A DNA stretch of 64,000 nucleotides from Nocardioides sp. (GCF_036374615.1 NZ_DASUTK010000100.1:5103-69102), one strand, 5' to 3'; numbered from the stretch's first letter, positions 23,037 to 27,612 are shown. Translations and numbers: made by a program. Notes: generated by a model not told the origin, from the letters alone.

Positions 23037-23807
23037 ATGGGCATTCTCGACGGCAAGCGGATCCTGGTCGCGGGAGTCACGATGGACTCCTCCATCGGGT
23101 TCGCCGTTGCGCGGGTCGCACAGGAGCAGGGCGCGACCGTGCTGATCTCCAACTTCGGGCGCGCGCTCGGCATCACCCGGCGGATCGCGAAGCGGCTGCC
23201 GAGCGAACCCCCGGTGCTCGAGCTCGACGTGACCGACCAGTCCCACCTCGACGGGCTCGAGGAGGCGGTGCGCGAGCACGTGGACGGTCTCGACGGCGTC
23301 GTGCACTCCATCGCGTACGGCAACCCCGAGACCCTGCTCGGCGGCAAGTTCCTCGACGGTCCGTGGGAGGACGTCGCGCAGGCGGTCCAGGTCTCGGCGT
23401 ACTCGCTGAAGGCGTTGGCCGTGGCGGCCCGCCCCTTGATGGAATCGGGCGGCTCGATCGTGGGCCTCACCTTCGACGCCACCACGGCGTGGCCGGCGTA
23501 CGACTGGATGGGCGTGGCCAAGGCGGGGCTCGAGTCCACCTCGCGCTACCTCGCTCGTGACCTCGGTCCCGAAGGCATCCGCTGCAACCTGGTGTCCGCC
23601 GGACCGCTCAAGACGCTGGCGGCCAAGGCGATCCCCGGCTTCGAAGGACTGGAGTCGCTGTGGAAGGACCGGGCGCCGCTCGGCTGGGACGAGGGCGACC
23701 ACGACCCGACCGCGCGCGCCGTATGTGCCCTGTTGAGTGACTTCTTCCCCGCCACCACCGGCGAGATCGTGCACGTCGACGGTGGGTTCCACGCGATCGG
23801 GGCTTGA
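23037..23807 (+). CDS. fabI: Enoyl-ACP reductase FabI/InhA
   Basis: SSIGFAVA, VVHSIA, AWPAYDWMGVAKAGLES, SAGPLKT. Confidence 0.95.
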   Translation: MGILDGKRILVAGVTMDSSIGFAVARVAQEQGATVLISNFGRALGITRRIAKRLPSEPPVLELDVTDQSHLDGLEEAVREHVDGLDGVVHSIAYGNPETLLGGKFLDGPWEDVAQAVQVSAYSLKALAVAARPLMESGGSIVGLTFDATTAWPAYDWMGVAKAGLESTSRYLARDLGPEGIRCNLVSAGPLKTLAAKAIPGFEGLESLWKDRAPLGWDEGDHDPTARAVCALLSDFFPATTGEIVHVDGGFHAIGA

Positions 23808-23824
23808 GCTCGGGTCACCCAGCG

Positions 23825-23875
23825 GCGGTGAGTACGGGACCGAATGAGGGCGTGGTTCGGTCCCTGATCCACCGC
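23825..23875. repeat. REP-like palindromic unit, copy 1
   Basis: gcggtgagtacgggaccgaa-N11-ttcggtccctgatccaccgc. Confidence 0.75.
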
Positions 23876-23968
23876 GCGGGGACGGTCGCTCTGCACAGAC
23901 AGGTGGGCGTGCCACGTCGTCCACAGGGACGCCGAGCGCTGTCGCCCCGTTCGAGTGGGATGGGACCC

Positions 23969-24940
23969 ATGAGACCGGTCCCCGAGCATCTGCTGCACCG
24001 ACCTTTCAGCCGCAGTGAGGCGGAGGCTTCCGGAGTGACCGGACGCATGTTGCGCGGCCGCCGCTTCATCCGCATCCTGCCGCGGATCTACCGGCACCGC
24101 GACCACGTCATGACCGACGATGACTGGGTGTTGGCCGCTCGTCTCGCCCTCCCGTCACGTGCACACCTGACCGGCATCACCCGGATCCAACAGCTGGGAC
24201 TCGACTTCGGACCCCGTTTCCCTGTGCGCTTCGTGGTCGAGGGAGACCTCCACCTCGCGTTCGACGAGATCTTCCTGCACCGGACCAAGCGGCTCCCGCC
24301 CACCGACGGGGAGGGCGTGATCCCGGCTGCCGCATTCATCTCCTTCTGCGGGCGAGCCCGAGTCATCGATGCGATCAAGGTCGGTGACTGGCTGCTGTAC
24401 CACGGGCACATGACCGTGGGCGAGCTGCACGACCTCGCGCTGGCCGAGCAATGGCGCGACGGAGCCGATCAGGCGCTCTGGGTGCTCGATCACCTCGATG
24501 GCGATGCTCGCTCGCTCCCCGAGTCAGAAACACGAGCCATTGTGGAGTTCGCCGGGCTGCCCGTGCCGGAAGTGAATCGTCGCCTCCCCATCGAGGACTC
24601 CATTGTCATCGGCGACCTGGTGCTTCTCGAGTGGCGAGTCGTCGTGGAGTACGAGGGGTCTCACCATCAGGCGGACCGGGGCCAGTACGTCTCCGACATC
24701 AGCCGCTACGCAGTCATGCGCCGGCACGACTTCGGTTACGTCCAGGTGACCAAGGAGAAGCTGGCTCGGGCGAGGAGTGTGGCTCGCGAGGTCCACCGCG
24801 AACTGGTCAGCCGTGGATATGATGGCCCGCCTCCCGAGTTCGGAGACCGGTGGCGGACGTTGTTCACCCGTCTTCACCGTGTCATCGGGTGTGAGCGCCT
24901 CGGTCGACGTGCTGGCGGTGAGGACGGGACCGCTTCGTGA
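23969..24940 (+). CDS. DUF559/Vsr-like PD-(D/E)XK endonuclease-domain protein with an N-terminal AbiEi-like region
   Basis: C-terminal SLPESETR...GLPVPEVN...GDLV...VVEYEGSHH...D..R...GYVQVT. Codon usage looks less GC3-biased than its neighbours (by eye). Confidence 0.72.
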   Translation: MRPVPEHLLHRPFSRSEAEASGVTGRMLRGRRFIRILPRIYRHRDHVMTDDDWVLAARLALPSRAHLTGITRIQQLGLDFGPRFPVRFVVEGDLHLAFDEIFLHRTKRLPPTDGEGVIPAAAFISFCGRARVIDAIKVGDWLLYHGHMTVGELHDLALAEQWRDGADQALWVLDHLDGDARSLPESETRAIVEFAGLPVPEVNRRLPIEDSIVIGDLVLLEWRVVVEYEGSHHQADRGQYVSDISRYAVMRRHDFGYVQVTKEKLARARSVAREVHRELVSRGYDGPPPEFGDRWRTLFTRLHRVIGCERLGRRAGGEDGTAS

Positions 24941-24965
24941 CGTGGATTAGTCCCTGGCTCACCGC
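24915..24965. repeat. REP-like palindromic unit, copy 2 (same orientation as copy 1)
   Basis: gcggtgaggacgggaccg...gtccctggctcaccgc; left arm matches copy 1 at 17 of 18 nt. Confidence 0.75.
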
Positions 24966-25000
24966 TGACCCGCGCGACCGGGTTCGGTAGCGTCCCGCGC

Positions 25001-26704
25001 GTGACCTCACTCGTCGAGCTCCGAGTCCTCGAGGGCCCGAACCTGTACTTCCCGCGCGCGGCGGTGAAGCTGACGCTGGACATCTCCCCGCTGGCGTCGG
25101 CGTCCGACGAGACGGTGGTCCGGTTCGCCCGGCGGATCGGGCTGAAGGGGGCGCGCCCGGGTGAGCCCGACACCGGCTTCCGGCAACGGTTCGCTGCCAG
25201 GGCCATCGCCCGGTTGGTCCGGACGATCGCCGCCGAGAGCGGGACGTCCCGGCTGGCGGTCCGGGTGCGTCCGACCGGCGACCCGCACCGGCTGGTGGTC
25301 GCCTACCCGTGGCGCCACCGGGAGCGCGCCCAGGTCATGGGCCGAGCCGTGGCCGAGGTCCTCGACGCCGTACCGGGCGTCGGTGTGGAGGAGGTCGTCG
25401 CCCGGGCGGCAGCAGCAGTGGCTTCCGCCGAGCCGGGGGAGGCGCCGAGCACGATCACGCCCACAATCCCGGTCGTGGCGGTGACCGGCACCAACGGCAA
25501 GACCACCACGAGCCGACTGATCGCCCACATCGCACGCACCGACGGCCGGCGCGTCGGCTGGTCGAGCACCGACGGGATCTACGTCGACGGAGCTCTGGTC
25601 GAGGCCGGCGACTACTCCGGACCCAGCGGCGCCGGTCGGGTGCTCGCCCATGACGACGTCGAGCTCGCCGTGACGGAGACCGCGCGCGGCGGCATCCTGC
25701 TCAAGGGGATCGGCCTGACGCGCAACGACGTCTCGGTGGTCACCAACGTCTCTGCCGACCACCTCGGACTCCAGGGGATCGACACGGTGGACCAGCTGGC
25801 CGAGGTCAAGGCCGTGGTCCCGCGGATCACTCGCAAGGACGGGTGGGCGGTCCTGAACGCCGACGACCCCCGCGTGTTCGCGATGCGCTCGGTCGTGAGG
25901 GCACAGCCGTGGGTGTTCTCCCGCGACCCCGACAGTCCCGCGATCCGCGAGGTGTTGTCGCACGGCGGTGGCAGGGCGACGACGGTCATCGACGGCTGGG
26001 TGTCGGTGCTCGACTCGCGCGGTGAGGTCGACCCGCTCGTGGAGCTGGTGGATGTGCCCATGACGCTCGCCGGCCTGTCCCGCTTCAACGTGGAGAACGC
26101 ACTGGCCGGGGCGTCGGCCGCACTGGCGGTGGGCATCTCGCGGGACGTGGTGGTGGCCGGTCTTCGGACGTTCCGGACCGACGCCGAACACAACCCGGGT
26201 CGGATGAACATCTTCAGCCTTGCGGGGGAAGCGCACGGCGTGACGGTGATCGTCGACCTGGCCCACAACGAGGCCGGGCTCGAGGCGTTGTTGGAGGTCA
26301 TGGCTGGAGTACGGCGGCCGGGCGCCCGGCTACTGCTCGGGCTGGGTGCGGTCGGTGACCGGCAGGACGACCTGATCGAGCGGCTGGGCGAGATCGGCGC
26401 GATGGGCAGCGACGTGGTGGCGATCTGCCACAAGCACCGCTATCTGCGAGGACGCACGGAGGGGGAGCTCGAGGCACTGCTGCGCGCCGGGACGGAACGC
26501 GTGGGCGTCGCCGACGTGCCGGCGTACCCGACCGAGGTCGAGGGCCTCGCCGCACTGGTCGCGCAGGCGGGGCCTGGCGACGTGGTGGGCCTGATGTGCC
26601 ATGCGGAGCGGGACGCCGTCTACACCTGGATCGCCGAGCACGGGGGTACCTCTGACAGCCCCGAGGAGCTGGCCGACAAGGTTCGCGCGACGGGTCGTGC
26701 ATGA
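25001..26704 (+). CDS. Cyanophycin-synthetase-like Mur ligase: degenerate N domain plus M domain, no ATP-grasp
   Basis: ELRVLEGPNLY N-terminus; TGTNGKTTT, ETARGG, NVSADHLG, LNADDP, NPGRMN, DLAHN; GTG 7 nt after TAGCGT. Confidence 0.85.
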   Translation: MTSLVELRVLEGPNLYFPRAAVKLTLDISPLASASDETVVRFARRIGLKGARPGEPDTGFRQRFAARAIARLVRTIAAESGTSRLAVRVRPTGDPHRLVVAYPWRHRERAQVMGRAVAEVLDAVPGVGVEEVVARAAAAVASAEPGEAPSTITPTIPVVAVTGTNGKTTTSRLIAHIARTDGRRVGWSSTDGIYVDGALVEAGDYSGPSGAGRVLAHDDVELAVTETARGGILLKGIGLTRNDVSVVTNVSADHLGLQGIDTVDQLAEVKAVVPRITRKDGWAVLNADDPRVFAMRSVVRAQPWVFSRDPDSPAIREVLSHGGGRATTVIDGWVSVLDSRGEVDPLVELVDVPMTLAGLSRFNVENALAGASAALAVGISRDVVVAGLRTFRTDAEHNPGRMNIFSLAGEAHGVTVIVDLAHNEAGLEALLEVMAGVRRPGARLLLGLGAVGDRQDDLIERLGEIGAMGSDVVAICHKHRYLRGRTEGELEALLRAGTERVGVADVPAYPTEVEGLAALVAQAGPGDVVGLMCHAERDAVYTWIAEHGGTSDSPEELADKVRATGRA

Positions 26705-27612
26705 AGCGCCATCCGGGCCCGCTCGTGGTCGCGACGTCGATCGGCGGCGAGCGTCACCTCGACCTGCGGGGACCCGCACCCTTCCCGCCCGACCAGCTGT
26801 TCCAGATCGGCTCCGTCACGAAGACGTTCACCGCCCTGCTCCTCGCCCGGCGCCTCGTCAGCGGCGAGCTGACCCTGGACACGCCGGTCGCCGACCTGCT
26901 TCCCAGCGCCGCGCCCGTGGGCGGTGACCGGCCGGTGACGGTGGGTGAGCTGGCGACCCACCGGTCCGGGTTGCCCCGCGTCCCCCGCAGCATGTGGCGC
27001 AAGGCGCTCACCTTCGACGACGACCCCTACCGCGAGTACGGCGACCAGCAGCTCGCGGACGACCTGCTCCGGGTCCGGCCGCGCCGACGCGGGCGACTGC
27101 GGTACTCCAACTTGGGAATGGGGCTGCTGGGCCATGCCCTCGCTCACGCCGCGGGAACGTCGTACGACGCCCTTGTGCACCGCGAGATCTGCGCACCGCT
27201 CGGACTCGTCGACACCACCGCGGCACCCAGCCACGAGCAACGGACGCGGCTGGCCATCGGCCACAAGCGCCTCGGCAAGCCACGCACGGTCGCATGGGAG
27301 TTCGACGCACTGGCAGGCGCGGGTGCCCTCTGGTCGACCGGCAACGACCTGCTCGCCTATCTCGAGGCGCACCTCGCACCGCCTGAGGGACCGCTCGGCG
27401 CGGCGCTGGAACGGGTGCTGGTGGAACCGGTCCTCGCCTGGCAGTCGATCCCGAGAGGCAAGCTCGCGGGGCTCTGGTGGCACAACGGCGGCACGGCCGG
27501 GTTCCGCAGCATGGTGGTGCTGGATCCCGAGCGTCGCCGCGCGTCGCTGGCACTGGCCGCGATCGACCGGGGTGTCGAGGCCGTCGCGCTCGACGCCCTC
27601 GAACAGAACTGA
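26701..27612 (+). CDS. Serine hydrolase, class C beta-lactamase/D-aminopeptidase fold
   Basis: IGSVTK (SxxK), YSN, HNGGT; ATGA overlap with the upstream gene. Confidence 0.87.
   Translation: MKRHPGPLVVATSIGGERHLDLRGPAPFPPDQLFQIGSVTKTFTALLLARRLVSGELTLDTPVADLLPSAAPVGGDRPVTVGELATHRSGLPRVPRSMWRKALTFDDDPYREYGDQQLADDLLRVRPRRRGRLRYSNLGMGLLGHALAHAAGTSYDALVHREICAPLGLVDTTAAPSHEQRTRLAIGHKRLGKPRTVAWEFDALAGAGALWSTGNDLLAYLEAHLAPPEGPLGAALERVLVEPVLAWQSIPRGKLAGLWWHNGGTAGFRSMVVLDPERRRASLALAAIDRGVEAVALDALEQN

Follow-up and report, generated by a model that had tools for sequence, protein, structure and literature searches.

Few non-coding elements of bacterial genomes are as abundant as repetitive extragenic palindromic (REP) repeats, and the HUH transposase RAYT, found mainly in Proteobacteria, is to our knowledge their only known protein partner. 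In the RAYT/REPIN pattern, a single-copy and largely vertically inherited gene is needed for a large repeat population, and its cognate repeat variant is scattered over the genome. These REP/REPIN-RAYT systems, also called 'REPtrons', are said to have been described in Proteobacteria by Nunvar in 2010 and by Bertels and Rainey in 2011. Here, we examine a 64,000-nucleotide stretch of DNA from Nocardioides sp. (GCF_036374615.1, NZ_DASUTK010000100.1:5103-69102; hereafter the window, meaning the whole stretch), in which a nuclease-like gene, gene X, is bracketed by two copies of a palindromic hairpin between fabI and a Mur-ligase-like gene. A sequence-only reading of this locus had proposed a REP-like system with a restriction-like nuclease in place of the HUH enzyme. 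The family-level association between gene and repeat and the lack of RAYT uphold that proposal in part, whereas a dispersed repeat is missing from the focal genome and the repeats elsewhere form tandem arrays, not REPIN doublets. In our judgment it is an evenly balanced proposition that positions 23808-24975 of the window are an inserted cassette, made of a nuclease gene and its own palindromes, in which X acts on its cognate hairpins as a functional analogue of REP/RAYT.

All elements that had been described for this locus were found in the window where they had been placed (Table 1), i.e., two ~51-bp palindromes in the same orientation flanking one gene, TGCACAG/TCCACAG motifs in the leader, and a setting between fabI and the CphA paralog. 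The two hairpins are direct copies, with 75% identity over 52 nt between 23824-23875 and 24914-24965. Their left arms, GCGGTGAGTACGGGACCG and GCGGTGAGGACGGGACCG, agree at 17/18 positions, and CGTGG is common to both loops, which otherwise differ. Each copy is an imperfect palindrome with arms 80-81% complementary, and RNAfold gave -26.2 (copy 1) and -21.2 (copy 2) kcal/mol for the 49-nt cores. When at most 2 mismatches were allowed, the window gave 3 matches vs 0.92 expected. Copy 1 begins 18 bases beyond the fabI stop codon (TGA, 23805-23807) and is separated from gene X by a leader of 93 nt; the stop codon of X (TGA, 24938-24940) lies inside the loop of copy 2, and the last 13 residues of the protein (311-323), a disordered tail, are the translation of the left arm of this second hairpin. 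An Rfam scan of 23600-25200 gave no match. Nothing was detected in a scan of the locus for sigma-70 promoters and intrinsic terminators, so the hairpins are not canonical terminators.

The same architecture recurs around homologs of X. In a GTDB genome scan of 80 loci, oriented on gene X, a strict GGTG..CACC hairpin was present within 400 nt upstream in 64/80 loci, at or after the stop codon in 64/80, and on both sides in 55/80, while a generic hairpin finder placed a strong hairpin on both sides in 80/81; homologous genes do, therefore, have flanking palindromes. Hairpin-gene distances were stereotyped in about 80% of the 80 species: in most homologous loci the first downstream hairpin begins 9 or 4 nt before the stop codon ends, further downstream copies follow at +64, +137, and +210, and the nearest upstream hairpin ends 100-145 nt 5' of the ATG. 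The hairpins that bracket X in these species often form tandem arrays with a 73-83-nt period. Inner 7-mers were common to the upstream and downstream hairpins at 43/81 loci; when hairpins of different loci were paired, the share was 20.5% (p=5e-16). We used this sharing in place of the global identity between upstream and downstream hairpins, which barely discriminates (0.61 vs 0.58) because the termini are common to all copies. The cassette family spans Nocardioides, with relatives in other Propionibacteriales, and Propionibacteriaceae homologs with only 28-56% identity again lie between hairpins that match each other but have a quite different sequence (e.g., CGAGTGTGCGC..GCGCACACTCG and TGTGCGG..CCGCACA). 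Two X paralogs within one genome have different hairpin variants.

The hairpin itself is under constraint. A covariation test was run on 63 hairpins from different loci, in which the four outer pairs were fixed by the selection procedure and are uninformative. Stem cells were paired in 86% of cases vs 70% in shuffles, and double-change cells numbered 113 vs 40 in shuffles, with 0/500 shuffles reaching either observed value; compensatory changes occurred at all seven inner-stem pairs. Mispairs on the sense strand showed no RNA-strand bias (G:T 241 vs A:C 236), and this equal frequency argues for a DNA-level palindrome over an RNA structure. RNA-level function (an mRNA stabiliser or small RNA) was rejected as the main constraint on the same ground. 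Together, these results point to a palindrome that acts at the DNA level, as a protein-bound duplex or as a hairpin/cruciform on either strand.

Beyond the flanks of the gene, hairpins are scattered through many genomes, and their numbers follow gene X. Over a reversed-pattern control, in 61 genus genomes, the median hairpin excess was 69 in the 20 genomes with X vs 23 in the 41 without it (Mann-Whitney p=1e-6), and an excess of at least 55 was reached by 13/20 genomes with X vs 0/41 without. All ten other genomes with X at the fabI-Mur site had an excess, of 14-138, and the focal genome's two sister genomes without X had 3 and 7. The cultured Nocardioides halotolerans DSM 19273 has ~75 scattered hairpins. 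Across 9 phylogenetically independent pairs, hairpin richness followed X in 5-6 and opposed it in 0. The gene-repeat association is observed at the family level, in a pattern where a large repeat population needs X but X does not suffice for one. No Y1/HUH transposase (PF01797) was found in 13 Nocardioides genomes (0/13), with control genomes positive.

The scattered hairpins are, moreover, of the kind that flanks X in the same genome, and each gene lineage has a hairpin variant of its own beside it. Dispersed cognate repeats are present in the relatives G014, G133-G136, G146, and G147. In G014, where X sits at fabI-Mur, we counted 140 hairpin matches vs 21 in the control, with tandem arrays at at least 8 loci, and every scattered hairpin belongs to the GGGTCG..CGACCC type also found beside X in that genome. 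The GGTTGC.GGCTGACCGC variant flanks X in one clade, whose four genomes gave 151, 94, 129, and 41 matches on the two strands together; in 9 other genomes its counts were at background. For G133-G136 the variant beside X is the variant scattered in the genome, and the scattered hairpins of G147 likewise match its X-flanking type.

Where hairpins are numerous they form intergenic tandem arrays of up to 12 units (e.g., G014:C2:386528-387324 and G133:C1:164810-165530), each unit consisting of the 51-nt palindrome and a 22-32-nt repeated spacer, so that the period is 73 or 82-83 nt. The array upstream of a given X differs in sub-variant and spacer from the one downstream of it, so both have grown in place by tandem duplication, and where the X module lies inside arrays it is placed exactly at the spacer/hairpin boundary. 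The scattered arrays, all intergenic, contained no remnants of X. A CRISPR reading of the arrays was rejected, as spacers are repeated within an array and repeats vary; Cas genes were not searched for. Among metagenomic homologs (P0002-P0120), most stand alone on contigs of 1.1-2 kb, a likely sign of breaks in short-read assemblies within the hairpin arrays beside the gene.

These comparisons also bear on the possibility that gene and hairpin have no functional link, i.e., that ordinary intergenic REP-like repeats gather near recently inserted or weakly expressed genes and that their correlation with X comes from shared ancestry. Related genomes do share both traits, the phylogenetically controlled test of the correlation is borderline, and the focal genome has no repeat population. 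Such a view is, however, at odds with the stereotyped geometry, with an identical architecture built from unrelated hairpin sequences in Propionibacteriaceae, with the match between scattered and X-flanking variants, and with the lack of hairpin-rich genomes among the 41 without X; the comparative results make it unlikely, and we give it very little credence.

For the protein, sequence searches gave little and structure comparison gave much. The Pfam DUF559 match of X (E=0.024, 14.9 bits) lies below the 20.6-bit gathering cut-off, and X had no match in searches of NCBIfam or PADLOC or to the Pfam AbiEi model. An AlphaFold (AF2) model built from 25 homologs had a mean predicted local distance difference test (pLDDT) value of 90.8. 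In Foldseek searches with this model, residues 1-~190, predicted to form a winged helix and a second domain, superposed on the entire AbiEi antitoxin 6y8q_A (E=5.7e-4, probability 1.0, 187 aligned columns), and residues ~195-280 on the catalytic domain of I-Bth0305I (3r3p; target-normalised TM-score, TMt, 0.80; root-mean-square deviation 2.9; probability 1.0), with E. coli Vsr (1vsr) also listed for the nuclease domain. The PD-(D/E)XK-like nuclease domain that had been suggested from the sequence is therefore borne out, weakly by sequence and clearly by fold: compared with the Vsr/DUF559 clade of PD-(D/E)XK nucleases (PF04480; clade 58 of PMC3424549), the catalytic domain has the Vsr-type fold and scores below the Pfam gathering threshold. 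Residues N203, D216, E227, H233, D243, and R246 were invariant in 83/83 homologs, and position 229 is E, D, or Q. By comparison with the conserved set D ... E-x-D/E ... H ... D, into which they fit, D216, E227, H233, and D243 are putative catalytic residues. Pairwise dN/dS of X (the ratio of nonsynonymous to synonymous substitution rates) was 0.12-0.23, indicating purifying selection, and together with the invariant residues this argues that gene X is functional and not decaying. Aligned N-termini of homologs back the ATG start. According to the model, X is an AbiEi-like winged-helix DNA-binding part joined to a Vsr-type nicking nuclease.

That the gene and its hairpins form an inserted unit follows from the empty sites of relatives. 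About 20 congeners have 20-40 nt between the fabI stop codon and the Mur GTG, with the motif GGTTCGGTAGTTT common to all; in the window this motif lies at 24977-24990, i.e., 3' of hairpin copy 2, so the intervening ~1.15-kb segment is an insertion. Since the empty fabI-Mur sites have no GCGGTG hairpin, hairpins and gene arrived together at this site. Among 30 genus genomes sampled via fabI, X occupies the site only in G000, G014, and G062, and GTDB species added 13 more. When 13 filled and 20 empty fabI-Mur sites were compared on a fabG-fabI-Mur tree, filled vs empty required 7 changes, at least 4 of them forced by supported branches, and occupied and empty alleles of this one conserved site are scattered on the host tree, as is typical of homing endonucleases. 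Across the family, X was found at at least 7 recurrent sites and 12 singletons, and most fabI-Mur sites are empty, so the locus is neither fixed nor syntenic across the genus. The fabI-Mur junctions share a conserved CACCGC|TGACCC on the right and carry fragments of hairpin ends on the left. At one intergenic site (L077 vs L098-L128; flank clusters 6/7), X comes from two different lineages, which face opposite ways with respect to the genes on either side.

Within its own small clade, the focal cassette is inherited at the fabI-Mur site, and gene X is usually single-copy and largely vertically inherited across the family; tblastn of X against the focal assembly found no paralog. The nearest metagenomic relatives (L156 and L157; protein 77-78% identical) agree with the focal cassette in site and hairpin variant and likewise carry a single hairpin per side. 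At dS ~1 from these relatives, the hairpin arms and the TCCACAG boxes are kept, while the loop and the remaining leader have diverged. The focal cassette is a minimal, intact, and non-proliferated unit with a single hairpin on each side.

Presence/absence polymorphism of this kind brings in a serious rival, in which X is a free-standing, homing-endonuclease-like selfish gene that lands in pre-existing hairpin arrays or particular intergenic sites or is copied into them when breaks are repaired. The hairpins would then be an independent REP-like family spread by the host and would serve X only as landing pads, portable homology, or insulators. Several results agree with it: the best structural match of the catalytic domain is the homing endonuclease I-Bth0305I; the polymorphism concerns a precise site, with at least four state changes; lineages of X are tied to sites, as site-specific homing predicts; two lineages occur in opposite orientations at one site; an in-frame stop interrupts ~4/21 genus copies, as in a gain-decay cycle; and the module sits exactly at the spacer/hairpin boundary in arrays. 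However, hairpins independent of X should sometimes abound where X is missing, yet no hairpin-rich genome lacked X (0/41); the empty fabI-Mur sites have no GCGGTG hairpin, X is mostly single-copy although dozens of arrays are on offer, and purifying selection on X is steady. On balance, we consider this rival unlikely, though to be taken seriously.

The same holds in kind for a second rival, that X is a domesticated host gene (a regulator, a defence or abortive-infection nuclease, or a cruciform-processing repair enzyme) with the hairpins as its operator, terminator, or insulator, and that the genome-wide correlation arises since hairpin-rich genomes need or tolerate such an enzyme. The leader of X is relevant here. 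One of its two boxes lies at about -87 and the other at about -58 relative to the ATG, a distance of ~29 nt, and TCCACA occurs in 72/81 homologous leaders vs 0.018 expected per 130 nt. In the leaders of Propionibacteriaceae homologs (L133, L135, and L136) the boxes become perfect 9-mers, TTGTCCACA and TTATCCACA, which we take to be DnaA-box-like; the leader boxes could serve the winged helix-turn-helix (wHTH) domain as operator or could tie X to replication control. A domesticated gene would fit the conservation of these boxes, which is typical of autoregulated wHTH proteins, as well as the AbiEi-like fold, the single-copy and largely vertical state of X, the purifying selection, and a focal genome with gene and two hairpins but no population. 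Against this stand the lack of a toxin partner (no AbiEii (DUF1814) nucleotidyltransferase gene is adjacent to X, whose neighbours are fabI and the Mur-ligase-like gene), the lack of a PADLOC match and of an intrinsic-terminator signature, and a patchy distribution over many sites with clean empty sites, unlike that of a housekeeping gene. Domestication also leaves unexplained why the scattered variant is the X-flanking variant, and we hold it to be quite improbable.

Returning to the reading in which X works on its own repeats, the steps could be as follows. X would recognise the cognate palindrome in DNA, either as duplex or as an extruded hairpin/cruciform, and would nick or cut there. Repair of the break by gene conversion, unequal exchange, or slippage would homogenise copies and expand arrays, and may now and then seed new sites or move X between arrays. 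In this reading, the two TCCACA(G) boxes of the leader are probably the operator or promoter of gene X. Both the action of the nuclease on hairpins and the mobilisation of repeats by the nuclease are what we infer from the comparative pattern. Extended to the family, AbiEi-wHTH/Vsr-type nucleases would be the cognate enzymes of an undescribed actinobacterial class of REP-like repeats, a RAYT-independent, convergent 'REPtron' that uses a nicking nuclease, with each nuclease lineage cutting its own ~50-bp palindrome and repair homogenising, multiplying, and spreading the copies; we advance this wider claim tentatively, as somewhat short of an even prospect.

A number of points weigh against this reading, for the cassette and for the family. 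Vsr-type nucleases form no covalent intermediate and cannot alone transpose DNA, and host recombination alone can grow arrays. In the focal assembly, a metagenome-assembled genome (MAG) of 3.74 Mb in 241 contigs, the palindrome is limited to the two flanking copies, with no dispersed population, so that the REP-like dispersal of the repeat holds for relatives with scattered populations and not for the focal genome itself, where the palindrome is unique to the site. The exact 16-mer arm occurs at the two flanking sites only across the assembly, the full two-arm pattern gave 2 matches vs 0 for the reversed control, and arm searches of the assembly relaxed to at most 1 mismatch found no copy beyond these two. 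The generic GCGGTG-N-CACCGC pattern was at background in the assembly (43 vs 42 and 20 vs 21 in the control). Hairpin counts are modest in 7/20 genomes with X, so the gene does not by itself ensure a repeat population. Genomes without X have a slight excess of their own (median 23), with small numbers of true hairpins. The phylogenetically controlled test had low power (median p=0.06, two-gene tree). The phylogeny of X follows genomic site (8 changes vs 44.6 in shuffles), so jumps are rare; no clear target duplication was found at the fabI-Mur junctions, and no recent transposition or duplication event was found. The near-identical pairs L115/L120 and L089/L117 were considered as recent transpositions and rejected, as their context does not differ and they probably reflect strain variation in MAGs.

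Table 1. Features of the gene X locus, with positions counted from the first letter of the window
Feature	Coordinates	Strand	Basis or remark
Inserted segment	23808..24975	+	from fabI stop to conserved pre-Mur motif GGTTCGGTAG; ends approximate
fabI (enoyl-ACP reductase), left neighbour	23040..23807	+	79-91% identity across genus; adh_short_C2-type neighbours
Hairpin copy 1, 51-bp imperfect palindrome GCGGTGAGTACGGGACCGAA-loop-TTCGGTCCCTGATCCACCGC	23825..23875	n/a	sequence, RNAfold
Distal leader box TGCACAG, variant of conserved TCCACA(G) box	23892..23898	+	leader comparison
Proximal leader box TCCACAG, candidate operator or promoter element	23920..23926	+	leader comparison
Gene X, 323 aa, ATG 23969 to TGA 24940	23969..24940	+	open reading frame; homolog N-termini; structure model
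Hairpin copy 2, same orientation as copy 1	24915..24965	n/a	holds stop codon of X
Mur-ligase-like gene (CphA paralog), right neighbour, GTG start 25001	25001..26704	+	Pfam Mur_ligase_M + Mur_ligase_C

The surroundings of the cassette vary as well. The two closest X-less relatives, L040 (G024) and L041 (G044), have a fabI-Mur spacer of ~90 nt with one unrelated hairpin of ~45-50 nt, which may be what a lost cassette left behind or may belong to a different repeat family; at more distant empty sites the spacer is 20-40 nt and has no hairpin. In six congeners (L045-L050) a histidine-phosphatase-like gene (LVVMRHAKA...) follows fabI and replaces the Mur-ligase-like gene, so the CphA-paralog cluster is itself variably present beside fabI. 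In the window (the 25001-27612 stretch), the Mur-ligase-like gene is a CphA paralog without an ATP-grasp match, and a beta-lactamase-family serine hydrolase gene (PF00144, E=2.5e-46) overlaps it by ATGA.

We found no paper in the literature linking DUF559 or AbiEi-nuclease genes to REP-like repeats; the trace found was one table row, in which DUF559 proteins are enriched among predicted inversion targets. With the case described here, a second enzyme family, unrelated to the first, is tied to palindromic repeats of its own, and this in high-GC Gram-positive bacteria. Should the link prove functional, gene-plus-repeat partnerships arose more than once, the common uncharacterised actinobacterial 'DUF559 / AbiEi-domain' proteins gain a testable role, and repeat spread must go via nicking and repair, not via transposase chemistry. 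There are practical consequences too, as the arrays break short-read assemblies, leaving most homologs alone on 1-2-kb contigs, and can be miscalled as CRISPR arrays or programmed-inversion targets.

Compared with described systems, the X cassette combines traits of several. With EDxHD/Vsr-like homing endonucleases such as I-Bth0305I (PMC3239194, PMC3384342) it shares the catalytic fold (TMt 0.80), the conserved acidic/His set, and presence/absence polymorphism at a precise intergenic site; unlike them, X lies outside any intron or intein, has an AbiEi-like N-terminal DNA-binding part, and is bracketed by palindromic repeats that are also found as gene-less arrays. AbiEi antitoxins of type IV toxin-antitoxin/abortive infection systems (PDB 6y8q) share the fold of X residues 1-~190, and the leader boxes of X resemble autoregulatory operators, whereas X is fused to a nuclease domain, has no AbiEii partner, and has no Pfam AbiEi match. 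Elements of the IS200/IS605 type are also single-gene units with a subterminal imperfect hairpin at each end, the two hairpins resembling one another and sharing one orientation, and with no obvious target duplication, but the X unit lacks TnpA (Y1) and TnpB, its sole open reading frame is X, its stems have no strand bias, and its movement is very rare. REP/RAYT systems differ in enzyme, X being an AbiEi-like wHTH part with a Vsr-type PD-(D/E)XK nuclease and not an HUH Y1 transposase, so that no covalent strand-transfer chemistry is expected of it; in repeat arrangement, which is one of tandem direct arrays with a 73-83-nt period and not of inverted REPIN doublets; and in the focal genome, which lacks a scattered population. 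They are nevertheless alike in the overall pattern, namely a usually single-copy, mostly vertical gene with its own palindromic repeat on both flanks, that repeat variant scattered intergenically, large repeat populations only where the gene is present, and a cognate variant for each lineage.

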